47,461 nucleotides of DNA from a virus. Below are positions 5,004-47,136 of this stretch, in pieces. The stretch lies in the UHGV virus genome UHGV-0210064, one strand, 5' to 3'. The notes under the pieces are model-generated. The model saw only the letters and a program-made list of their open reading frames with translations. It did not search any database and was not told the DNA's origin. A program made the translations under genes and the position numbers. The stretch's first letter is position 1, and each line of letters starts with the position of its first letter.

Positions 5004-5027
5004 ATCCCCCGCAGAACGCAAAGCAAC

Positions 5028-5052
5028 AACCCACCATCAGGTGGGTTTTTGT
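5028..5052 (+). terminator. rho-independent terminator (tR2-like position)
   Basis: Hairpin aacccacc-atca-ggtgggtt followed by a T5 run. Confidence 0.6.
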
Positions 5053-5108
5053 TCCCGGCCAATGCAATTGTTTTGCAAGATAAAGCACATTTCGTGAGCA
5101 GTCTCTGG

Positions 5109-5138
5109 TTGACTAAACTTAACCAAAGTACATAGAAT
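5109..5138 (+). promoter_or_regulatory. candidate sigma70 promoter for the HEPN cassette (TTGACT-18-TAGAAT)
   Basis: -35 ttgact at 5109-5114 and -10 tagaat at 5133-5138. It sits in AT-rich DNA upstream of 5171. Confidence 0.3.
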
Positions 5139-5170
5139 TCTAAACCCACATAGCATAGGCGCAAGTTGGA

Positions 5171-5950
5171 ATGGCTGCAGGCATACCAAAGGAAAAATCT
5201 GTTGAGTACATTGAAGTATTCGGTGACATGCTCAAAACAGGGGCAACACTGAACGAATTGTCATACCACAGATTTCTGCGTGAAATTACAACGTTAAAGT
5301 CGCCTTTGTCGGCAACGGCCGTGGGGCTTCTTCATGCAGTGGCGGGCAAACTCGACAAATCGAACGCAGCCTTCATAGAGGCTCACGCTGAGTACAATGA
5401 TGTTTCCATTGCCTATAACCATTTAGTAACTCTGCGCCTGACCTGGCAAGACCACTTACTGAAAGATAAGTCATACGAATACGCAGATCTTCATGAGTCG
5501 AAAAGGCTGTCAATGATGGCATACTCTTTTGCTTATCGGTTCGGAGATAGAGACGGTCTGGTACGATACATGGATCGTCACATCAGGTTGTTATCCGATG
5601 GGGAGGGAAGGGAATTGGCAAATAGACACAAAGACGAATTGCTTTCTGAGTTAAACGATGCTTACCAATCATCAAATTGTACGCAAGAACAATTTGAAAA
5701 GCTGGCCCTTATAATTAGTCGCGTCGCTAAAGATTTCAATGCTGAAATGGGGTTGGTAGAGGTAAGCAGGAAGGGAAGCTCTTGCTATGTAGCCGACATA
5801 AAAAACAAAGATCCTAAAACCATTGCTGAGATGAATTACGTTCTTGCGGAAGCGGTCTGTGATGAGCCAATGCTGGATGATTGCAACCTAATTGGCCGGT
5901 TTTCACCACAAAGAGAGCTACATGTTGGGGTGAGCTATGTGTGTCAATAG
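5171..5950 (+). CDS. unrecognised 259-aa protein, upstream partner of the HEPN protein
   Basis: AT-rich relative to neighbours. No motif I can assign. No minimal-nucleotidyltransferase (MNT) signature (GSx..DxD). Its stop overlaps the HEPN gene start. Confidence 0.5.
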   Translation: MAAGIPKEKSVEYIEVFGDMLKTGATLNELSYHRFLREITTLKSPLSATAVGLLHAVAGKLDKSNAAFIEAHAEYNDVSIAYNHLVTLRLTWQDHLLKDKSYEYADLHESKRLSMMAYSFAYRFGDRDGLVRYMDRHIRLLSDGEGRELANRHKDELLSELNDAYQSSNCTQEQFEKLALIISRVAKDFNAEMGLVEVSRKGSSCYVADIKNKDPKTIAEMNYVLAEAVCDEPMLDDCNLIGRFSPQRELHVGVSYVCQ

Positions 5951-6332
5951 CATCGATTTCGTAAGTTCAGCTAGGCTCTACCTAAATCACGGTGACGAGG
6001 TGGGGTATAGGAATTGTATATCTCGCGCATATTATGGAATGTTTCATGAGGCAATGACATCTCTGACCAGCGTGCCATCCTATAGCGCCAACCATCACGG
6101 TAACCTAATTGGGTACATGACAACGGCTTCAGAATGCAAAAATGAGCCATTTGATAAACACAAACTAAAAGTCATGGGGTACAACCTAAAGCAGATGCGG
6201 GACTGCAGGAATGAAGCAGACTACGACATAACTGAGGTTACCGTATCCAAGGAAATGGCCGAGGCAGGATTAGAAGCTGCTGACATCTTTTTCGGCAAAT
6301 GGTTAGCACTCAAGGAAGCAAAAGCATCTTAA
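5937..6332 (+). CDS. HEPN-domain protein (COG2250/PF05168-like; predicted RNase toxin or effector)
   Basis: 131 aa. Contains SRAYYGMFHEA (Rx6H with the typical SRAYYAMFHAA context) and a C-terminal RNEADYD (Rx2ADY). Both are hallmarks of HEPN proteins that pair with an MNT. Confidence 0.65.
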   Translation: MCVNSIDFVSSARLYLNHGDEVGYRNCISRAYYGMFHEAMTSLTSVPSYSANHHGNLIGYMTTASECKNEPFDKHKLKVMGYNLKQMRDCRNEADYDITEVTVSKEMAEAGLEAADIFFGKWLALKEAKAS

Positions 6333-6396
6333 GCAAAAATTAAACGTTAACCAACTTCTGGCGGTTGATTTCTTTCTGTCACTACCAAATCACAAA

Positions 6397-6418
6397 CCTC
6401 GCTTCGGCGGGGTTTTTT
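6397..6418 (+). terminator. rho-independent terminator (cctcgc-ttcg-gcgggg + T6)
   Basis: GC-rich hairpin with a TTCG tetraloop followed by tttttt. The identical 22-bp element recurs at 30732-30754. Confidence 0.6.
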
Positions 6419-6434
6419 CTCGCCTATGCTCATT

Positions 6435-6463
6435 TTGCATTTATCCCCGGGAAGGGCGATAAT
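6435..6463 (+). promoter_or_regulatory. candidate sigma70 promoter TTGCAT-17-GATAAT restarting rightward transcription
   Basis: -35 ttgcat at 6435-6440 and -10 gataat at 6458-6463. An inverted repeat gtcagt...actgac lies downstream. Confidence 0.35.
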
Positions 6464-7921: not shown

Positions 7922-8058
7922 GCCGTGACGTTATCGAACGCATCCGCGACCGCTGGCAAAAGCTCCGCCTCTGCCGGCACCGCGGAACCGTACTGGTTGA
8001 CTACAAAATATTACGCAATTTCGTCCGTATCTATCATACCCTGGGAGAGACAGCATGA
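7918..8058 (+). CDS. small hypothetical ORF (46 aa) between ninG and Q
   Basis: ATGA overlaps at both ends, 7918-7921 and 8055-8058. Not in the ORF track. Confidence 0.25.
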   Translation: MSRDVIERIRDRWQKLRLCRHRGTVLVDYKILRNFVRIYHTLGETA

Positions 8059-8864
8059 ACCTCGAATCTATCGCCAAATACTTCGCGCCTAAATCACCAA
8101 TGCTGAGCGACTCGCCACGGGCTACTGCATCGGATGGTTTAACCGGCACTGACATCATGGCCGCTCTTGGGCTGGTAAATGCCAAGTGCGGATTCGGCTT
8201 CGACCTCTATCTGGCAAAGATCGGGGTAAGCACACCTGACCGAGCAATGGAGCTACTTTATGAATCAGCAGAGCGACTATCAATCCGCTTTAACATCGTT
8301 TCAGAACTCAGCCAGGACGTTCGCAAAAGAGTTCTCGAAGTTCTGTGCGCTTTTGCATACCAGGATTACACGCGAAGTGCTGCCAGCGTTAGAAAATGCT
8401 CTTGCTGCGATGGGACTGGCTTCACAGAGGCTCAAGTGTTCACCAACAAATGCTCATATCCGTGGGGCAAGCCGCCTTATTGGGCAAAGATGTCCCGAGC
8501 GGTTCGCCCAAGCCATTGGGAGAGCTGGAGCGAAGTGCGCGAGGTGGTCAAAGTTAAATGCTCAACCTGTAACGGAAAGGGTGTTATCAGCAATTCGTGT
8601 CGCTGCAATGGGAAAGGAAAGGTACTGGATAAAGAGACCAGCGAGCGACTTGGCCTACCGGTAATGAAGGTGTGCGATCGCTGCAGCGGAAGAGGCTATG
8701 CGCGCATGAAATTTTCGACGGTAATGGAAGGGGTAAGGGCCGTTGCTGACATTAAGAAAACGGTAGCTTATGAGCAGCTGAAGCCGTTCTTCGAGGAGCT
8801 GGTCTCCGAATGTCACAAACAGGAATCATACGCTGATGTCATTCTCTCCCGGGTGACGAGATGA
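8055..8864 (+). CDS. Q: late-gene antiterminator Q candidate (PF06530-like) with four CxxCxGxG zinc-finger motifs
   Basis: It sits immediately upstream of a PR'-like promoter and tR'-like terminator. Cys-rich C-terminal half. Confidence 0.55.
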   Translation: MNLESIAKYFAPKSPMLSDSPRATASDGLTGTDIMAALGLVNAKCGFGFDLYLAKIGVSTPDRAMELLYESAERLSIRFNIVSELSQDVRKRVLEVLCAFAYQDYTRSAASVRKCSCCDGTGFTEAQVFTNKCSYPWGKPPYWAKMSRAVRPSHWESWSEVREVVKVKCSTCNGKGVISNSCRCNGKGKVLDKETSERLGLPVMKVCDRCSGRGYARMKFSTVMEGVRAVADIKKTVAYEQLKPFFEELVSECHKQESYADVILSRVTR

Positions 8865-9020: not shown

Positions 9021-9095
9021 GGGTCAGAAGCACAGCGGTTGTGCGTTCGGCTGTTAACCGAATGGTCGAAGGTTCGAATCCTTCCTGTCCCGCCA
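9021..9095 (+). tRNA. tRNA-Asn (anticodon GTT)
   Basis: Cloverleaf folded by hand: D stem gcac/gtgc, anticodon stem ttcgg/ccgaa with loop ctGTTaa, T arm gaagg-ttcgaat-ccttc, 3' G-CCA. One T-T mismatch in the acceptor stem. Confidence 0.7.
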
Positions 9096-9099
9096 GATT

Positions 9100-9175
9100 G
9101 CTGGTTTGGCTCAGCAGGTAGAGCGCCTGCCTTGTAAGCAGGATGTCGGCGGTTCGATTCCGTCAACCAGCACCA
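9100..9175 (+). tRNA. tRNA-Thr (anticodon TGT)
   Basis: Acceptor gctggtt/aaccagc, D stem gctc/gagc, anticodon stem cctgc/gcagg with loop ctTGTaa, T loop ttcgatt, 3' A-CCA. Confidence 0.8.
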
Positions 9176-18745: not shown

Positions 18746-19782
18746 TGAACGAATTTCAGCGACACTACGCCGCAGCCAGCGGGAAATATGGCATTGTGCT
18801 GCCCGGCGCGAAGGACTACCTGAAGCCGGAGTTTGCGGAGAATTTCGCGCTGGCGATGGATGCCCAGCCGCAAATGGTTACTGCGAATAACGCCGGTATC
18901 CCGGCCTACTTCACTAACTACGTCGATCCGGAACTTATTCGCGTTCTCGTAACGCCGATGAAGGCCGCCGAGATTATCGGTGAAGTGAAAAAAGGCGACT
19001 GGACGACGCTGACCTCGCAGTTCCCGATCGTCGAGTCGACTGGTGAAACCAGCGCTTACGGCGACTTCAACAACAACGGCATGACGTCCGCCAACGTCAA
19101 CTGGGTACCGCGCCAGTCGTTCCATTATCAGACTCACACCCGCTGGGGTGAGCGCGAGCTGGACATGTACGGCGCCGGGCGTATCGGCTATGCCGCCGAG
19201 CTTAACGTGGCCTCTGCGCTTGTGCTGAACAAATTCCAGAACAAGTCCTACTTCTACGGCATCGCCGGGCTGGAAAACTACGGCCTGCTCAACGATCCGT
19301 CTTTGAGCGCTCCGGTGACGCCGGCGGCGACTGGTTCCGGCGGTGGCGTTACCTGGGCAACTAAAGACGGGCAAGCTGTATATGACGACATCTCCGGCCG
19401 TCTCTATAAGCAGCTGGTCTCTCAGACCAAAGGCCTCGTAGAGCGCACCGATCGCATGGTGCTCGGCATGTCGCCGGAAATGGAAGTCAACCTGACCAAG
19501 ACGAACCAGTACAACGTGAACGTCACCGATCAGCTGAAGAAAAACTTCCCGAACATGCGTATCGAAACCGCTGTTGAATACAGCACCGACGCAGGCGAGC
19601 TTGTGCAGCTGATTGTTGAGCGTCTGGGTGAGCAGGACACCGCTTACGCAGCGTTCACCGAGAAGATGCGCGCCCACGCTGTCGTGGTGGAAGAGTCTTC
19701 CTGGCGGCAGAAAAAATCCGGTGGCACCTGGGGTGCAATCATTCGTCAACCGCTGGGCATTGCCAGCATGATTGGGGTGTAA
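18745..19782 (+). CDS. major capsid protein (DUF2184-type HK97 fold)
   Basis: 345 aa. Position and composition fit a major capsid protein. Confidence 0.7.
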
Positions 19783-38930: not shown

Positions 38931-40193
38931 TCAAATAACTATGCATTGGGGCATGGATGGGGCAAAGTCCGATAATTTCTGGTTCAACATAGCAATCTGA
39001 TCGCTGTTACTGTCGGCCATCCAGGCGCCGTAGACATTGAAAACCATTTGGGCGCTTGTGTGCCCCATCTGGCTCGCAATGAAGCTGGGGTTGGCCCCGG
39101 CTGACAGTGACCAGCAGGCATAAGTGTGTCTGGACTGATATGCTTTGCGATGCCTTAAACCAGCTCGTTTCAGCGCCGCCTCCCATGAGTCACCAATTGA
39201 ATCAACCTTGTAATGATAACCAACGTTACTGCTTTTTCTGACCAGCTGAGGATTGAACACAAATGTACAGTCATGAATAGCCGTTCGGCCATACTCCCGT
39301 AGTTGTACCTCAATCTGATACTGCTTTCCCAGTCTGGTCATTTCCGCCTGGTTCCTCAAAGCGTCAATGGCTGGTTTGATCAGATGCACGACCCTGTCGG
39401 TGCCGGCTTCGGTTTTTGGTGGAGTGAAATCACCGAGTTTCGTATAATTTCGGCGTATGGTCATCGTTCCAGCTTTCAGATCTATGTCTTCCCATGCAAG
39501 GGAGACCAACTCACCGTGGCGTAATCCTGTGTAAACCGCAACGGACCACAGGTTTTTCGTTTGCTGATGCGGGCAGGCATCTATGAAACGAATAAATTCG
39601 TCACGAGTGAGTGGATCAGGTTCTATCCTGGCCCTTTTAAGCGGCCTGATTCCGTTAAATGGGTTTTCCCGGATATAACCATTATCAGCGGCAAACTGAA
39701 ACATGCCCGCCATGGTGGTCATGTAATAGTTTGCTGTCGCCACACTCAAACCGTTCTTCACCGATCCCGCCGACAACATATCTTTCCTGACATACAACAG
39801 ATCTTCCCTGTTCACGGATGAAGCAAGCTTGTTTCCACCAATCCTCAGCAGCATATTCCTTACAACCGATTCATATCGGTCCAGAGCATTAGCGCAGATC
39901 TCCAGCCGTTTCAGCTCCAGCCATTTTTCAGACAGAAATTTCACGGTGATATCTTTCTTGCAGATGCCGAAAGTTTTCAGGTTTGGCGAATTGGGGAATT
40001 GCGCCGCATAGTCAAAGGTCCCCATGCGGATAGCGAAACAAACTGACGTTCGCAGTTCCCCGGCCACCTTCCTGTTTTTAGCGGTGTCAGGGACACCGAG
40101 ATTTTCCCTGACACGCTTACCTTTAAAAATGAACCATATGCGGAGTGATTTTCCGTGGTTCTCAACGCCCGTTGGGTATGATTCTTTACTCAT
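38931..40193 (-). CDS. int: tyrosine integrase
   Basis: C-terminal R..HxxR..Y catalytic signature (HRKAYQSRHTYACW...MGHTSAQMVFNVYGAW). Confidence 0.85.
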   Translation of the reverse strand: MSKESYPTGVENHGKSLRIWFIFKGKRVRENLGVPDTAKNRKVAGELRTSVCFAIRMGTFDYAAQFPNSPNLKTFGICKKDITVKFLSEKWLELKRLEICANALDRYESVVRNMLLRIGGNKLASSVNREDLLYVRKDMLSAGSVKNGLSVATANYYMTTMAGMFQFAADNGYIRENPFNGIRPLKRARIEPDPLTRDEFIRFIDACPHQQTKNLWSVAVYTGLRHGELVSLAWEDIDLKAGTMTIRRNYTKLGDFTPPKTEAGTDRVVHLIKPAIDALRNQAEMTRLGKQYQIEVQLREYGRTAIHDCTFVFNPQLVRKSSNVGYHYKVDSIGDSWEAALKRAGLRHRKAYQSRHTYACWSLSAGANPSFIASQMGHTSAQMVFNVYGAWMADSNSDQIAMLNQKLSDFAPSMPQCIVI

Positions 40194-40701: not shown

Positions 40702-40920
40702 TCAGCGCTCCTTTATATATCCGTTCAAAATACCTATCTCCACATAGAGATGGCTTGGCGTTAACCCAAGCTGCTTTATCAGCGGCATGCATCCGTTGAG
40801 GATCGGTCGTGATATCTCGTCGCAACTTAAAGCGGGAGATGACCGCCGTTTTGCCTTAACCTCATCGTTAGCCCTGCGTGCGATGCTTCTGAGCGCATTT
40901 TTCTTTTCTTCTGGCGTCAT
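40702..40920 (-). CDS. hypothetical protein
   Basis: 72-aa ORF with overlapping stop and start. Confidence 0.35.
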   Translation of the reverse strand: MTPEEKKNALRSIARRANDEVKAKRRSSPALSCDEISRPILNGCMPLIKQLGLTPSHLYVEIGILNGYIKER

Positions 40921-41687
40921 GCTGCCTCCCGTTTCTTATTGAGGTGGGGTGCATTCGAAAGGAAAACGGCCTTTGCAAATCCCAGGGGAGTAGCACTGCG
41001 AATGTTGGCACGCTCGTCGCTGGGCGGACATTCGTGAATTCGGTTGTCCGGATACCAGTCAGTCACCAATCCGGCAAAGGACGTTCCGGATATGGCCTCG
41101 ATCGCCTTTTTCTTCGGCATCATGCGGCCGCAGGCCAGCTTCACGGCGTCGATAGCCGCTTCAACCATCGGGTGCATATTCTCTGCCGGCGCCTTGAAGC
41201 CGTTACCCGTCCAGAGGCATGTCTGCTTCGTGTAGTTGTCATCCGCGCACAGCCCAGTGAACTGGTACGGATGGAACGTGTAATCGGCAGAGCCGAAGAT
41301 GCTACTGAACACGCTCACCGGGTTTTCGAATGCCCACGGGCAGCCAGCCGCCAAGCCAACCATCCGGCATTGCTCAGCGACCAGCGCGGCCTTGCCCTGG
41401 AAATGCGGGTCTTTGGCGCGCTTGGACTCGAACCAGCGGGACCCGGAAACAGCCACGTCCGTGCATGGTGGGAAGCCGATGACGATGACGACGTTCTCAG
41501 AGCGGATGATCTGAGATAGCCTCGGCATCGCCTCAAGGATGGTTGCCGATATGCGCTCAACAGGACCGTCGATCGAAGTTTCAGGGTGCTGCGGGTCCAC
41601 CAGGACTGCGCGATAACCTGCTTCGACCCATGGCTCAGCCATGACGCCAGTGATATCGCACAGGCAGATAATGGTACCTTTGCTCAT
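40917..41687 (-). CDS. putative DNA methyltransferase (C5-cytosine-like PC and ENV motifs)
   Basis: GFPPCTDVAVSG and AFENP motifs. Confidence 0.4.
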   Translation of the reverse strand: MSKGTIICLCDITGVMAEPWVEAGYRAVLVDPQHPETSIDGPVERISATILEAMPRLSQIIRSENVVIVIGFPPCTDVAVSGSRWFESKRAKDPHFQGKAALVAEQCRMVGLAAGCPWAFENPVSVFSSIFGSADYTFHPYQFTGLCADDNYTKQTCLWTGNGFKAPAENMHPMVEAAIDAVKLACGRMMPKKKAIEAISGTSFAGLVTDWYPDNRIHECPPSDERANIRSATPLGFAKAVFLSNAPHLNKKREAA

Positions 41688-42211
41688 GCTGCCTCCAGAT
41701 TCCCGATCCGCTTTAACTCAGCCAGCGATACAGTCGTGATGATGTGTCGCGGGGTGATGTACGGACGCCAGATAAACAGGAGCGAGCCTTTGGGGTTGCT
41801 CTGGCGCTTTCCTGTAACGGATGCCGGAACAAACTGAACACGGCCGCCGGTTATGAGTCTGAGTTCATCAGCTGATTGCATGGCTGAAATAAACCAGCCA
41901 GTAGAGATGTCAGCAGGTAACAGCATCACTACGGCCTGAGATTGCGCCCGGGATTGTTCAGCAGCTTTTTCCACCCATGGACCGATATCGGAATAGGGCG
42001 GGTTACACCATATCGCGCCGCATGACATCCATTCGCTGTTCAGCGAGTCATCCAGCTCAGTGAGATAGTGAGCGCATAGCGCATTACTCTCAGAGGCTGC
42101 AGCATCCAGCCAGAAGCCAAACTCGCGGTCGAGCGCGTTGAAAATTTCAATCGGCGTTTGCCAGTAGTCACGTTCATTTTTTGGAGTTTTCGATCCGCCG
42201 AAATCAGTCAT
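41684..42211 (-). CDS. DNA N6-adenine methyltransferase (phage Dam, PF05869-like)
   Basis: NPPY motif (WCNPPYSD). Confidence 0.65.
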   Translation of the reverse strand: MTDFGGSKTPKNERDYWQTPIEIFNALDREFGFWLDAAASESNALCAHYLTELDDSLNSEWMSCGAIWCNPPYSDIGPWVEKAAEQSRAQSQAVVMLLPADISTGWFISAMQSADELRLITGGRVQFVPASVTGKRQSNPKGSLLFIWRPYITPRHIITTVSLAELKRIGNLEAA

Positions 42212-42239
42212 TGCGCACCTCTTTTCGTGTCTGCCTTTC

Positions 42240-42863
42240 TCATGCGGCATGGTCGTGGTTTTTTATGCTGGAAATCTCTTTCTCCAGATCTTCCAGGAAC
42301 TTTTTCACTTCGGACTGAATCTCATTTGCCAGTGCTTCGTCGAAGTGAATGCGCTTTTTGAAATAGGCGAGGTCTGGCGGTAGACGATCGTCGAAACTAA
42401 CGAAATCACACCATTTGCGCCCTGTGCACATCATCTGAGCGTGCATCTGCAACAGGTACTGGCGTTTTGGCTCGCCAGTTTTTAAGGTCTCAAGATGAGT
42501 CCAGGTGTTGGGGCACTTAATTTCGATAAGCCCATCACCATTAACAAGCCCATCAGGGCTTGCTGCGAATCCTGGTATAGTTGGGTGATCGATAAGCCCC
42601 ACCTCAGTGATTTCGGCATCGAACTCATTCAGCGCATACATCTCGCGTGCTACCGGCTCGAGTTCTGTTCCGCGTATCATTGCGGCGTTGGAGAAACCTT
42701 CTTCAAGCTTCCCGGTGAGGCGCTGGCAAATCAGCTCGGCCATGTAGTTCTGTCGGCTTGCTGCATAGCCAGACTTGGTTCTGGCCATGACGTCAGCAAG
42801 GCGGCTGGCTGTGACTTTTCCGCAGCGAGCGGCAAACCATTCTGGGGTGCGTTGTTCCATCAT
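42240..42863 (-). CDS. YqaJ-type 5'-3' exonuclease (PD-(D/E)XK)
   Basis: Motif pattern ...GLIEIKCP... Adjacent to recT. Confidence 0.75.
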   Translation of the reverse strand: MMEQRTPEWFAARCGKVTASRLADVMARTKSGYAASRQNYMAELICQRLTGKLEEGFSNAAMIRGTELEPVAREMYALNEFDAEITEVGLIDHPTIPGFAASPDGLVNGDGLIEIKCPNTWTHLETLKTGEPKRQYLLQMHAQMMCTGRKWCDFVSFDDRLPPDLAYFKKRIHFDEALANEIQSEVKKFLEDLEKEISSIKNHDHAA

Positions 42864-43606
42864 TTATCCTCCGGCGCTGCGGCATCGACAGGTTCTGCGT
42901 TGTCGACTGCAAGGCTCATGTCATACATGCGACGCTTCTCAACCGCGCCGATAACCTGTTTCTCTTCTGCGCTTAACGCAACCCAGAATTCCTGGTACTT
43001 AACAGTTCCAAGGCGTGCGGCAGACTCGCCTTTTGCGATCAGTTCGGGGCGACGACCATCCGACTCATGCCCTACATGAACCTCTGCCGTACTCCCTTCA
43101 ATGACACGCTCGGCTTCGTCCTGATCGAAGATGCCAGCAAACCCAAATGCGAGACGCGCACACTGGATCAGCGTCTTGTGACGAAGCATACGGGTAGGGT
43201 GGGACTGCCATGGCTGAGTGTTGCGTTTGCACTCTCCCATGTACTCAGTAACGATGGTCGGGTGTGTCCGGTCTTTCCGGTATATCTTGCAGGTACACGC
43301 GCCTTCTTCCTTGTCGTAGGCAAACTCCATTCCATCAAACTGAGGATGTTCGTTGATGATTCGAGCCCAGCCGTCAACGCCGACCACTGGAACAATTCCG
43401 CCTTTATCCGGGAATGCATAAATCTCCTTCGTCCACGGATTTAGTCCGTACTGGTTGGCGACGATCAGCAGTGCCGTGAACTGCTCATCAGTGACATTCC
43501 CACCCTTAAATGCTGTATTTTTCAGAGTGTTCATCAGGTCAGTTCCGGCATCCATGCCGAGGCGGGAGGCAAGCTTCCCGGCCATTGTAGAAAGTGCTGT
43601 GCTCAT
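42860..43606 (-). CDS. recT: RecT-family single-strand annealing protein
   Basis: RecT motifs NPWTKEIYAFP, GGIVPVVGVDGW. Confidence 0.8.
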   Translation of the reverse strand: MSTALSTMAGKLASRLGMDAGTDLMNTLKNTAFKGGNVTDEQFTALLIVANQYGLNPWTKEIYAFPDKGGIVPVVGVDGWARIINEHPQFDGMEFAYDKEEGACTCKIYRKDRTHPTIVTEYMGECKRNTQPWQSHPTRMLRHKTLIQCARLAFGFAGIFDQDEAERVIEGSTAEVHVGHESDGRRPELIAKGESAARLGTVKYQEFWVALSAEEKQVIGAVEKRRMYDMSLAVDNAEPVDAAAPEDK

Positions 43607-43914: not shown

Positions 43915-44886
43915 TCAGTAACTGATCCCGGTGTGCGGGATGTTTCCGTCTTTAATCTCGGTGAGCACCTCGATAGCCTGATCCCGGGTAAGGCTGGTAT
44001 TGGCCACCAGGGCTTTGACGATGTCAGTGCCGACAGTTTTGCGGTGCTTCACGTCGGCTTCGCGGCGCGCCTGCTCATCTGCTTTGCGCTTCTCTTCAGC
44101 CAGTCGGGCCTGTTCGCGTTGCTCTGCCTCGCGGCGGATGCGATCGGCTTCTTCCTGTGCTTTGCGGCGTTCCGCTTCAACAGCGGCCTGCTTTTCACGC
44201 TCAGCACGTTCAGCTGCTTCTCGCTGTTCGCGTTCTGCGCGCTCTTTGGCCAAAATCGCCTCACGCTCTCTGGCTGCAGCGGCGTCAATTTCACGCTGCG
44301 CTTGTTCTTCCGCTTCACGTTTCGCTTTCTCTTCTGCCCGGCGCTTAATCTCTTCTTCGCGGGCAATGAGCTGGCGTTCTGCTTCTGCCTTCTTCTCGGC
44401 CTGAACACGGTCGAAAGCGTCATTCATCAGCAGGGCTATTTCGTGGTCAGACTCAATCCGAGCAGCCAACTGCCGATCGAAGTCTTCATTCATGGCCAGC
44501 GCTTCGGCATGAAGTGCGTTCATGGCTTCTTCGGCCTTAATGCGTTCCTGTTCGGCTTCCCATTCGGTCAGCGGCTTACGTGTCGCATCGCGCAGTTCGT
44601 CACATGCGTCAACGAACCGCTTAATTTCCGCCTCAGCAGGGCGCACAGCCTCTTTAAGGCGTTTCAGGTACTCGCGCCCCGGCTTTTCGATTGCCGTCTT
44701 GCTGCGTGATACCTGCGCCGCCAGAGAAGCAACACGGTCACGACCTTTCTTGGTGGTCAGGTCCGGAACCTCGTTCACGGCCTGGCGAATCTGCTCAAGG
44801 TAAGCGTCAAGACCGCCAGCCCGGTACAAAGCTGGCGCCTGCTCTGGCTTTATTTCGATAACGGTTAAATCCATTATTTCGCTCAT
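43915..44886 (-). CDS. DUF1351-like protein with long E/R/A/K-rich coiled coil
   Basis: Start chosen at MSEIMDLTVIEIK. Repetitive charged helix. Confidence 0.45.
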   Translation of the reverse strand: MSEIMDLTVIEIKPEQAPALYRAGGLDAYLEQIRQAVNEVPDLTTKKGRDRVASLAAQVSRSKTAIEKPGREYLKRLKEAVRPAEAEIKRFVDACDELRDATRKPLTEWEAEQERIKAEEAMNALHAEALAMNEDFDRQLAARIESDHEIALLMNDAFDRVQAEKKAEAERQLIAREEEIKRRAEEKAKREAEEQAQREIDAAAAREREAILAKERAEREQREAAERAEREKQAAVEAERRKAQEEADRIRREAEQREQARLAEEKRKADEQARREADVKHRKTVGTDIVKALVANTSLTRDQAIEVLTEIKDGNIPHTGISY

Positions 44887-44974
44887 GGTTCCCCCTGAAA
44901 TTTGGTTGTAAGAATCCCCGGCGCGATGAAAGCCGCCTGATAGCTCAGTTAAATTCGTGCGCTGATATGCGCGG

Positions 44975-45169
44975 TTAATGCGTCCCGGCTGGAACCAGGT
45001 TCGGCTCGATACTGCGTGAAGCGTATGGCCGGCGGATGTGGCGCAGATTTCCCTGCGGCTCATGCCAGTAGCTGCCGTCGCGATAGTCGAAGCTGACCAG
45101 CCAGGCGGCGCCGGTGCGGCGATTGCGCATCATCACGGCGCGTCCGCTGTTAGGAATTGAGTTAGCCAT
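44975..45169 (-). CDS. hypothetical Arg-rich protein
   Basis: 64 aa. Confidence 0.3.
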   Translation of the reverse strand: MANSIPNSGRAVMMRNRRTGAAWLVSFDYRDGSYWHEPQGNLRHIRRPYASRSIEPNLVPAGTH

Positions 45170-45272
45170 TGAACACCCCCGTAGCGTGCAGAATTTTGAT
45201 AACCACCGCTGTCCAGATAACGCCGCAGATCAGCAGGCAGTAAATCAGTGAACGAATGCCTTGTTTGCTCAT
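45162..45272 (-). CDS. small hydrophobic peptide (36 aa)
   Basis: Found by hand translation: MSKQGIRSLIYCLLICGVIWTAVVIKILHATGVFNG. Overlaps its neighbours via ATGA. Confidence 0.35.
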   Translation of the reverse strand: MSKQGIRSLIYCLLICGVIWTAVVIKILHATGVFNG

Positions 45273-45376
45273 TTTCCACCCCAGCATGCGAAGCTAAAAA
45301 AGAGGACAGCAACCAAAAACGGAACGACCTTTAACCAAAAATTACGCCATGCAGGCTTGTCTTCTTCGCGGATCAT
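45269..45376 (-). CDS. small hydrophobic peptide (35 aa), first ORF downstream of PL
   Basis: MIREEDKPAWRNFWLKVVPFLVAVLFFSFACWGGK. RBS aaggtg. Confidence 0.35.
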   Translation of the reverse strand: MIREEDKPAWRNFWLKVVPFLVAVLFFSFACWGGK

Positions 45377-45455
45377 CTCTTCACCTTTGCCTTATCGCGG
45401 CTAACGGGACGTTTTGACTTCACCCCGGCGTTGCCGGTGTTGTTTGGATGAGATG

Positions 45456-45497
45456 ATAATACTCCGGGTATTATTTTATATCAATACCGCTAGTATT
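45456..45497 (-). promoter_or_regulatory. PL promoter (minus strand TTGATA-17-TATTAT) with two operator sites AATAC-N5-GTATT
   Basis: Operators at 45458-45472 and 45483-45497 overlap the -10 and -35 elements. Confidence 0.5.
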
Positions 45498-45596
45498 ATG
45501 AAATTTAATAAAACTACTAAAGGTATGATTTTAAAGTTGATTTATTTTTGTAAAGAGTGCTGTTATGCTCAAAAAACATCATAAAGGGGTGTTGGC

Positions 45597-45800
45597 ATGT
45601 CGAATGAGGATGAGTTTTTCGCAGAAATGCATCCGCAGATAGCGCAGATTATCGGGATAGCGGTTATGCAGCTGCTGGTTGAGAAGCGCGAGCCATCAAG
45701 AGAGGCGTTGATAGAGATGATTCAGATGTTGTGGCAGGGTGACCAGGTAGATCTGCCTGTGGAGCTGGCACTGGACGTGCTGATGCTGCGGGAAGAGTGA
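45597..45800 (+). CDS. hypothetical acidic 67-aa protein
   Basis: ATG with a RBS (aaagggg). The orientation is opposite to its surroundings. Confidence 0.3.
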   Translation: MSNEDEFFAEMHPQIAQIIGIAVMQLLVEKREPSREALIEMIQMLWQGDQVDLPVELALDVLMLREE

Positions 45801-45826
45801 TTCCTTAAACTATGATTAATATGGTT

Positions 45827-46231
45827 TTATTTTCTTGTTATAAGGGAGAGCAGCTTTTCTGAAGCGCGTATCGGCTTTGATAAGTCTCCTGCGATATAAG
45901 TATATTTATTGGTTTTTATCAGAACCTCTTCCCCTCTGTGTGAGCTTTCGAACTCATCAAATGCACTCATAAGATCACTGTTATCAATTTTTTTCCTAAT
46001 GTCAGAAAACCTCAATATATCAATTCGTTTTACTTGAGGATGAGAGAATTCTCCTCTACGCATATCATCAATATGGATTATCAATTTCTCTCTAATCGGT
46101 ATTGATACCTGATTCCACTCCTTTCTTTTTTCACCTTTTATGGCAAAGTAGTAGCTTATATAACCAGTTGCAGGAACTGCAATAGAGGCTACAATCATGG
46201 CAATTGTTGCAACGCAGTCGCTATATGTCAT
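45827..46231 (-). CDS. membrane protein in rexB-like position downstream of cI (candidate exclusion/abortive-infection factor)
   Basis: One N-terminal TM segment. AT-rich gene. Co-oriented with cI. Confidence 0.45.
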   Translation of the reverse strand: MTYSDCVATIAMIVASIAVPATGYISYYFAIKGEKRKEWNQVSIPIREKLIIHIDDMRRGEFSHPQVKRIDILRFSDIRKKIDNSDLMSAFDEFESSHRGEEVLIKTNKYTYIAGDLSKPIRASEKLLSLITRK

Positions 46232-46414
46232 GAGGTCTTCCTATGCCAGATGTATTTACATTTTCCGAAATGCTTTCAACAGTGGCGCTGGCAATATCTT
46301 TAACCAACGCTGTCTGGTTGTTCTTTTTTTGGTTGACAGTCAAGAGGATGTAATAGCGATTAACATCCTCTACAAATCAACCGTGCTTCCTGTACGTCTG
46401 CGGCATGCTGCCGA

Positions 46415-47125
46415 TCACACAAGCCTTAACTTAGTTTCTACGGCCACACCAATGATTCGACAGTTTCCGTTGATGGGAACCAATGGCCATTGAGGGTTTA
46501 AGCCCTTCAGGTACTTCTGGTCACCATCAATGATCAGTTTTTTAAATGTCGCCTCGTTTGATTCCGAGAGTTTTGCAATAACGAGGCTTCCGTTGACCGG
46601 CTCCCTTCCGGTATCAAAAAGAACATATGTACCCTCAGGTATGCTGAGCCCGACCGGGGCAGTCATGGATTCCCCCTCGACCAACAACCAGAACGCTTCC
46701 CCCTGGATGTGAGCGTCTGATTCGAGCCATAGATCGATATCTTTAAGTGCATACGGCTCGCACGCTTCAGACCAATTCCCAGCCTGAATCTTGCTTAATA
46801 CAGGGTATTTAATGCCTGGGGCGTACTGGCCTACATACTTGGCATTCGATGTAGCGGCAGCACTCATTGCAGATATTTCTTTCGCAAGGCTGGGGCTAAA
46901 ATCAGAGACATCCACCTGGAGGGCTCTGGCAAAAACAGCAGCCACGGCAGCATTAAGGGCATTCCTGCCATTCAGGTAATGCCCAACGCCACCCTGAGAT
47001 ATGTCTAGCATGTCAGCTATTGATTGCTGTGTGATCCCAAGCTCTTTTTTCTTGGCTTCATAGAGGGCTTTCAGCCTTTCTGCGTCAGCGATCTGAGCCG
47101 ATGTCAGTGTCTTTTTCTTTTCCAT
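46415..47125 (-). CDS. cI: CI repressor (lambda-like HTH plus S24 autopeptidase)
   Basis: Aligns along its whole length with lambda CI: QSGVG HTH, GESMTAP, FKKL. The ATG at 47123-47125 is preferred over the TTG at 47131. Confidence 0.85.
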   Translation of the reverse strand: MEKKKTLTSAQIADAERLKALYEAKKKELGITQQSIADMLDISQGGVGHYLNGRNALNAAVAAVFARALQVDVSDFSPSLAKEISAMSAAATSNAKYVGQYAPGIKYPVLSKIQAGNWSEACEPYALKDIDLWLESDAHIQGEAFWLLVEGESMTAPVGLSIPEGTYVLFDTGREPVNGSLVIAKLSESNEATFKKLIIDGDQKYLKGLNPQWPLVPINGNCRIIGVAVETKLRLV

Positions 47126-47136
47126 TTTCAAATAGT

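Follow-up and report, generated by a model that had tools for sequence, protein, structure and literature searches.

Small two-gene systems built around HEPN proteins are the closest described counterparts of the locus presented here. The HEPN family PF05168, represented by the structure 2hsb, is listed among the nucleotidyltransferase-associated HEPN-T families (Anantharaman et al. 2013). In this family the motif histidine is often replaced, and a conserved histidine elsewhere may aid activity (Anantharaman et al. 2013). Pairs of PF05168 with the minimal nucleotidyltransferase (MNT) PF01909 are termed "class II"; they are without RX4HXY and conserve the tyrosine, and one survey counted about 9,600 of them (Yao et al. 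2020). The HEPN protein of the type IX retron-Kva2 also works without the canonical motif, using a distant H64 and R122 across the dimer while Y40-42 position the RNA; a complex sequesters it until a phage protein frees it, and it degrades tRNA in defense (bioRxiv 2026). Helical-repeat partners have been recorded for other HEPN families: LA2681 is fused to or in an operon with tetratricopeptide repeat (TPR) proteins, and AbiU2 occurs with a Sel1-repeat gene (Anantharaman et al. 2013, Table 1). Herein, we describe a two-gene cassette in the virus genome UHGV-0210064 that joins a class II-type HEPN protein to a partner of another kind. The window, meaning the whole stretch of DNA analyzed, is 47,461 nucleotides long, and all positions without a locus name refer to it. 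The cassette lies in an inserted block of low GC content (5025-6420, + strand) and consists of gene A (5171-5950, +), encoding a 259-aa protein proposed to be an antitoxin, sensor, or gate, and gene B (5937-6332, +), encoding a 131-aa protein proposed to be an RNase effector or toxin.

Predicted structures and conservation of proteins A and B

Protein B was modeled by AlphaFold2 (AF2) as a five-helix bundle with a predicted local distance difference test (pLDDT) score of 92.8. Its best Foldseek match was AF0298/2hsb, with a template modeling (TM) score of 0.69-0.71 and 30% identity. HEPN domains also made up most of the remaining top matches, sacsin, HepT, TT1696, TM0613, and AbiV among them. 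A profile of the B family matched 9xbd (1.5e-7) and 2hsb (1.6e-6). The Pfam HEPN model PF05168 matched the window protein at E = 0.014, which is below the gathering threshold, and some relatives of B carry a precomputed PF05168 match and the source names "UPF0332" or "HEPN domain-containing". These profile and fold matches assign B to the HEPN fold, of the PF05168/UPF0332 class II type that is usually partnered by an MNT, and bear out the initial annotation of B as a small HEPN protein of the MNT-associated class.

The active-site motif of B differs from what had been expected. B does not contain the canonical Rx4-6H motif; the motif position reads R91-N-E-A-D95-Y96 and holds no histidine. The RX4HXY motif of type VII HepT is likewise absent from B. 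A PF05168-type fold without RX4H and with the tyrosine kept corresponds to the class II definition. An Rx6H stretch (R30...H37) had been proposed as the HEPN motif, but it lies in helix 2, and the canonical motif position is a different one. Both R30 and H37 are kept throughout the B family, a conservation that does not extend to 2hsb or 9xbd. Across 53 unique sequences that are 29-75% identical to window B, eleven polar or aromatic residues are invariant: R25, R30, Y32, Y33, H37, H54, Y60, E70, R91, D95, and Y96. Such invariance would be expected in an enzyme and not in a scaffold. Judging by the order of the helices, H37, H54, and R91-Y96 should be located at the same end of the bundle. The invariance of H54 and H37 fits the remark of Anantharaman et al. 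(2013) on histidines located elsewhere.

The PDB entries 9xbd and 9xbc, which match B over residues 27-127, are the same class II HEPN protein and differ by a tyrosine to phenylalanine exchange at the equivalent of Y96 (RNRSDY vs RNRSDF). Somebody appears to be probing that tyrosine. The searchable literature yielded nothing useful on UPF0332, class II HEPN, or 9XBD.

In the AF2 model of protein A (pLDDT 91), residues 7-140 make up eight helices, residues 147-168 and 172-188 one long helix each, and residues 193-246 a C-terminal beta-beta-alpha-beta unit. Residues ~7-140 form the helix-turn-helix repeat array that is typical of TPR proteins. In this model, A is a TPR-like array joined to a small alpha/beta domain. 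The earlier statement that the partner of B has no nucleotidyltransferase motif held, as no such signature was found; the accompanying statement that it has no known motif did not, as the TPR array is recognizable. In BFVD, two uncharacterized metagenomic phage proteins share the whole A fold (TM 0.62-0.67). In an exhaustive profile search with A, 160 cluster representatives scored E ≤ 1e-3, 68 of them E ≤ 1e-10. These matches are mostly 245-270 aa long, and generic TPR proteins also match the repeats. Named members come from Enterobacterales and Aeromonas and are called "hypothetical" or "tetratricopeptide repeat protein". When a profile of residues 143-259 was compared with PDB sequences for relatives of the C-terminal part, only low-complexity matches to designed helical proteins were obtained.

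Conservation within the A family is spread over residues that are kept at ≥90%: P6, L88, A117, G125, H137, L141, A150, Y206, N222, L225, A226, L235, D236, C238, R243, F244, and Y256. No catalytic-looking set of conserved residues was seen in the family. The model and the alignment suggest that A is an adaptor and not an enzyme. Mean identity to window A is lowest over residues 1-110 (33%) and highest over residues 111-170 (49%) and 213-250 (55%). We also considered A as a divergent or degenerate MNT and rejected this idea: none of 64 A-family members matched NTP_transf (PF01909) at E ≤ 1, there is no conserved G[SG]...DxD (GSX10DXD) motif, and the C-terminal domain has three strands only. Stand-alone proteins of ~100 aa consisting of the C-terminal domain only were considered as well, and the two examined appeared to be fragments or split genes (one on a 521-bp contig, one from a split A gene).

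A-like proteins were also found in other gene neighborhoods. The A-like protein P0141 (324 aa; L039 199-1376, Logan SRR12008660) aligns to residues 31-242 of A with an hhalign probability of 97%, and its C-terminal tail matches DUF1902/HicB-like at E = 0.0017, below the Pfam threshold. It is followed, with a 1-nt overlap, by a gene for a HicA toxin (PF07927, 1.8e-10) and then by a tail-assembly-chaperone gene. This arrangement, in the tail region of a phage, suggests that an A-type module stands on the antitoxin side of another RNase toxin-antitoxin (TA) pair. In the distant P0139 lineage (L031 4001-6134), the gene that follows an A-like gene (244 aa) encodes no HEPN but a 440-aa protein that has a PEP-utilizers mobile domain, which may be an effector swap.

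Gene layout, pairing, and mobility of the cassette

The initial annotation had placed two open reading frames (ORFs) with an overlapping stop and start here, and both were found as described. The stop of A and the start of B overlap by 14 nt, ATGTGTGTCAATAG. At 90% identity, homologues in a collection of 5.8 billion proteins form 34 clusters for A and 35 for B (top E 7.8e-164 and 4e-80, respectively), and each protein matches one PHROG, both of unknown function. With homologues and PHROG families for both ORFs, A and B can be taken as real genes. A Shine-Dalgarno-like element, GGGGTGAG (5927-5934, +), is located in the terminal part of A, with 2 nt between it and the ATG of B, which suggests that translation of B is coupled to that of A. 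GGAG/GGGG purine-rich motifs occupy the equivalent position in most of 14 aligned loci, and the A/B overlap is 11-20 nt long in 13 of them.

The pairing of A and B is strict. In IMG/VR, B was present in 67/67 loci seeded with A, and A in 42/44 loci seeded with B; the other two B genes are within ~400 nt of the end of a contig that is truncated upstream of B. Among the remaining loci in which hidden Markov model scans found an A-like gene, B was adjacent in 28/32. Three of the four others belong to the P0139 lineage, and the fourth is on a contig too short to judge. The pair is still together where identity has fallen to 18-24% for A and 30-38% for B. The two proteins diverge together, with a correlation of r = 0.93 between their pairwise identities (91 pairs), and in 98% of pairs the better conserved one is B. 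A and B thus form a compact two-gene operon whose members co-occur and co-evolve, as is characteristic of TA systems. At one locus (L038 2510-3680), A is split into a 156-aa TPR ORF and a 100-aa ORF for the C-terminal domain, followed by a 126-aa B homologue; this copy may be decaying, or it may be a genuine split form.

The cassette is an insertion of ~1.36 kb between a gene of the DUF551 region and ninB. In the Klebsiella phage ST11-VIM1phi8.1, which does not carry it, the homologue of a 74-aa ORF is joined straight to the upstream region of ninB. Alignment with this phage places the left junction at ~5023-5025 and the right junction within 6387 to ~6423. Homology to other phages and to E. 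coli prophages picks up again at 6393 or 6415. In E. coli complete genomes, the backbone flank alone was matched and no cassette was found at megablast sensitivity. The initially noted drop in GC content relative to the flanking genes was borne out by measurement: the insert has 44.3% GC, against 53.3% in the left flank, 55.4% in the right flank, and 52.5% in the whole window (standard deviation 3.4%), which places it within the lowest 2.3% of windows of equal length. GC content at third codon positions (GC3) is 46-49% in the insert and 60-66% in the adjoining genes.

The expression signals proposed for the cassette were also recovered. An intrinsic terminator is predicted upstream of A (5028-5054, +), with a GC-rich stem of 8 bp closed by a 4-nt loop and followed by a U-tract. 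The hairpin at 5028-5047 with its U-tract has a folding energy of -18.8 kcal/mol (z = -3.8), in agreement with the strong terminator first reported here, and this terminator is missing at the equivalent point of the cassette-less phage. It is predicted to insulate the cassette from read-through of the early operon. A sigma-70-like promoter is predicted at 5109-5138 (+), with TTGACT, an 18-nt spacer, and TAGAAT (10/12 positions). The number of promoter-like sites in the region is not above chance, with 4 found and 2.7 expected, and the support for this candidate comes from its conservation across contexts. The ~40 nt spanning -35 and -10 are 100% identical in the K. pneumoniae tail-module copy, the genes of which share only ~76% DNA identity, and the promoter stretch is also 100% conserved in the Raoultella copy. 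Promoter-like sites (≥9/12) end 29-40 nt before A in 7/14 contexts.

A second intrinsic terminator is predicted after B (6394-6420, +), with a stem of 9 bp closed by a TTCG loop and followed by a U-tract; the hairpin at 6394-6415 with its U-tract has a folding energy of -13.1 kcal/mol (z = -2.45), which supports the terminator claimed at this place. A GC-rich hairpin followed by T5-7 lies within 32-109 nt 3' of B in 12/14 contexts. The window terminator sits in the junction zone, where the cassette-less phage has a different hairpin. Its stem CCTCGC/GCGGGG is identical to that of the terminator after B in L023, an unrelated copy in a metagenomic myovirus; those of the Serratia, Rouxiella, Phytobacter, and Enterobacter copies are similar to it. 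The stem shared with L023 and the different hairpin of the cassette-less phage indicate that this terminator probably moves with the cassette. The terminators after B in the window, L008, L011, L016, L017, and L023 are alike, with AACC(C/T)(C)GC, a T(T/C)CG loop, GCGGG(G), and T6-7. The weak candidate promoter upstream of ninB (6434-6463, +; TTTGCA, 18-nt spacer, GATAAT; 9/12 positions), which had been described as restarting the phage operon, is backbone DNA common to cassette-less phages and lies outside the cassette. Taken together, the precise presence and absence, the predicted promoter and terminators of its own, and the foreign composition identify the block by its sequence features as a phage moron, the layout that the initial annotation had recognized.

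Every cassette locus whose context was readable lies in phage or prophage DNA. Among isolated phages in GenBank, only Klebsiella phage ST405-OXA48phi1.3 carries the cassette. Its place there is upstream of the tape-measure gene in the tail region, and homology to the window extends from 5084 to exactly the stop codon of B (6332) at ~76% identity overall. The annotation of this phage (MK416008.1) cuts the HEPN gene into two small coding sequences; the intact 131-aa ORF is at 19076-19471 (L001 4854-5249). A Raoultella contig encodes A at 98% identity. The contexts comprise a siphovirus tube/tape-measure region; the myovirus baseplate in K. aerogenes, Serratia, and metagenomes; the lambda-like tape-measure/minor-tail junction in Enterobacter; the integrase end of a P2-like Yersinia prophage; the variable locus adjoining replication gene A in a P2-like Vibrio phage; a lambdoid Q-lysis region, beside a methylase and HicAB; and the region after Mor in a Mu-like element, with a protein cluster that includes Aeromonas. 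Compared across these genomes, the cassette is by its sequence a mobile, autonomous unit that occurs in unrelated phages.

Two copies have further genes beside them. The Yersinia copy has a 219-aa protein between the integrase and A (L019 3255-3914) with a weak PADLOC NsnC match (E = 0.0025). The K. pneumoniae copy has a 156-aa protein 3' of B on the opposite strand (L002 7218-7688, -) with a weak YjcQ match.

The window phage itself is a complete, circularly permuted lambdoid temperate genome whose nearest DNA relatives are Klebsiella phages. It encodes an integrase (38931-40193), a methyltransferase (40917-41687), Dam (41684-42250), YqaJ (42240-42863), RecT (42860-43606), a 381-aa protein of phrog_1376 with no assigned role (43915-45063), a CI-like S24 repressor (46415-47131, -), and a Q antiterminator (8055-8864); replication, nin, and structural genes were recognized as well. 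Two tRNA genes (9021-9092 and 9100-9172, +) lie directly 3' of the Q gene. An Rfam scan of the window found these two tRNAs only, both outside the insert. The lowest GC content of the window (~42%) is reached at 45100-46600, adjoining the gene of the CI-like repressor, which is the position of rexAB in lambda. This stretch contains a 134-aa ORF (45827-46231, -) of phrog_34525, without assigned function and with no PADLOC match, and it may be a second moron.

Proposed mode of action and competing explanations

We consider it an even call that the cassette, an autonomous, horizontally mobile moron, works as a TA-like module of the abortive-infection type, with A sequestering and gating B. The order of the genes, with A first and B overlapping it, is the usual antitoxin-toxin order and favors a TA-like reading. 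The toxicity of B, its neutralization by A, the RNase activity, the trigger, and any defense phenotype are inferred. In the prophage, the cassette would be expressed from its own promoter, with the terminators insulating it from the early operon and from Q. A would be translated first, and B would follow by translational coupling. B may act as a dimeric effector whose site is built from R91, D95, and Y96 with H54 and/or H37, with Y32/Y33 positioning the RNA. Residues 111-170 and 213-250 of A could bind the B dimer and keep the RNase site closed. The variable N-terminal TPR face may sense a phage-derived cue, or A may be a labile partner that is removed by proteolysis. Once A is lost or occupied, B would be released and cleave RNA, most likely tRNA or mRNA, so that translation stops and growth is arrested. 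The outcome would be a block of the superinfecting phage or a punishment for loss of the element. The retron-Kva2 tRNase, which has no canonical motif, provides a functional precedent for B.

Several points weigh against this proposal. The label "HEPN RNase" appears less safe for B than the initial annotation assumed, because its class is without RX4H and was without published biochemistry as of 2020; the toxicity and RNase activity of class II HEPN proteins were explicitly called unproven in that year (Yao et al. 2020). The link to the retron HEPN comes from the PADLOC model HEPN_IX, which weakly matches 5/33 B-family members (best E = 1.5e-4), and is a lead and not a proof of homology. The evidence for a physical interaction between A and B consists of their co-divergence and of translational coupling. 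The HicB-like evidence for P0141 is a sub-threshold match on a single 1.8-kb contig. Many copies of the cassette are co-oriented inside late tail operons, which is compatible with late lytic expression and with a role for the phage itself.

The architecture that supports the gating of B by A would equally suit an addiction-only TA module, which stabilizes the prophage or moron by post-segregational killing and has no anti-phage activity; the HEPN/MNT relatives are classed as TA systems. This explanation seems unlikely to us, since the cassette occupies sites rich in accessory and defense genes (the variable loci of P2, the Q-lysis region, and that after Mu Mor) and has a variable N-terminal TPR surface; both would suit sensing more than simple addiction, although neither point is decisive. 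The cassette might instead serve the lytic phage directly, with A-B made together with late or early genes and cleaving host RNAs, countering host defense, or excluding rivals in place of triggering suicide. The orientation of most copies along tail or baseplate operons and the restriction of all readable contexts to phage or prophage DNA would fit such a benefit. However, the cassette has a predicted promoter of its own and lies between terminators in most contexts, as would be expected if its expression did not depend on the neighboring operon, such as in a lysogen, and the many unrelated positions show that the cassette is not bound to one phage process. We judge a lytic function of this kind improbable.

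The sequence of B also allows a non-catalytic HEPN protein, a nucleotide or RNA binder or a regulator like MtlR, sacsin, or the substrate-binding domains of nucleotidyltransferases, so that A-B would be a regulatory or adaptor complex. Non-catalytic HEPN proteins are known, RNase activity is undemonstrated for class II, and B has no canonical Rx4-6H. Set against this are the eleven invariant polar or aromatic residues with two Arg-His combinations, maintained across 29-75% identity, and the retron HEPN, which is without the motif yet is an active tRNase using a distant His/Arg pair. A purely binding role for B is in our view quite improbable. The frequent location of the cassette in tail modules could further be read as an accessory function in tail structure or assembly, with the TPR protein as a chaperone. 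This is very hard to reconcile with the window copy in the nin region, with other copies by the integrase, after Q, and after Mor, and with close relatives of the window phage that do without the cassette; no virion role is known for HEPN domains. We give it almost no weight.

A wider idea is that A-type proteins are portable phage-sensing antitoxins or gates for various RNase toxins: a class II HEPN here, HicA in L039, and possibly others in L031. We regard this as possible but on balance doubtful. If it were true, the cassette would offer the first functional handle on class II (PF05168) HEPN proteins, which would then be RNases with a split His/Arg/Tyr site, controllable by sequestration rather than by the AMPylation that their usual MNT partners had led others to assume. 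The fusion of A-like and HicB-like parts is a hint that the TPR module could be used over again as a sensor for RNase toxins. The cassette is a simple two-gene system in which to ask whether class II HEPN proteins are toxins, which residues form their active site, and how they are controlled by a non-enzymatic partner. If lysogens were protected, it would add to the prophage-encoded defenses of Klebsiella, Enterobacter, Serratia, Yersinia, and hosts related to them, with a bearing on phage therapy against these pathogens.

Comparison with known systems

The pairing had looked undescribed from the outset, and PADLOC 2.0, NCBIfam, and the searchable literature do not contain it. Neither window protein matched a model in PADLOC 2.0.0, the defense-system scan suggested initially, or in NCBIfam, and across the A family PADLOC returned scattered single matches at chance level. 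The searchable full-text literature, subscription papers excepted, contained no system of a TPR protein with a PF05168-HEPN, and neither Rousset 2022 nor the 2026 papers on P2/P4 hotspots describe a TPR + HEPN pair. DefensePredictor DS-28, a HEPN family nuclease with a 252-aa protein, was examined as a candidate and rejected, as it has the reversed gene order, a canonical RNSVAH motif, and visibly unrelated sequences.

Other systems share single features with the cassette. HicAB is linked to it only via P0141, with its HicB-like tail and HicA, and the window cassette has no HicA or HicB domain. Lambda rexAB and the P2 old/tin hotspots are likewise autonomous units of foreign composition between conserved genes, and members of the cassette occur in P2-type loci, but their proteins are unrelated to A and B. 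The LA2681 and AbiU2 families resemble the cassette in combining a HEPN effector with a helical-repeat partner in conflict-system contexts. By their descriptions, they are other HEPN families with the canonical Rx4-6H, whereas B is of the PF05168 type and nothing matches A's C-terminal domain. The type IX retron-Kva2, compared by its description, has a tyrosine cluster with a distant histidine and arginine, and B has the invariant residues Y32, Y33, H54, and R91; the retron, however, includes a reverse transcriptase, a noncoding RNA, and a winged-helix protein, whereas the insert comprises A and B only, and the partner that sequesters B would be a TPR protein.

The HEPN/MNT systems come closest. 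Type VII HepT/MntA (class I) is likewise a compact two-gene operon in which a small HEPN lies downstream of its neutralizer, and it has a tyrosine next to the motif arginine, as B does. It differs by its RX4HXY motif, its nucleotidyltransferase partner, and its DUF86 family, none of which is found in the cassette, where B belongs to PF05168. Class II HEPN/MNT pairs, such as AF0298/2hsb, are like B in fold, in having no RX4H, in the tyrosine of R...D-Y, and in a histidine located elsewhere, and their HEPN is also the downstream gene of a two-gene operon. Their partner is a minimal nucleotidyltransferase (PF01909), whereas A has a predicted TPR fold without GSX10DXD or an NTP_transf match. Since A is not an MNT, it cannot neutralize B by AMPylation of the tyrosine, and yet the acceptor-like Tyr96 is still present. 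Our comparison suggests that the cassette belongs with the HEPN-based systems of the TA or abortive-infection type and differs from them in a new, probably non-enzymatic partner.

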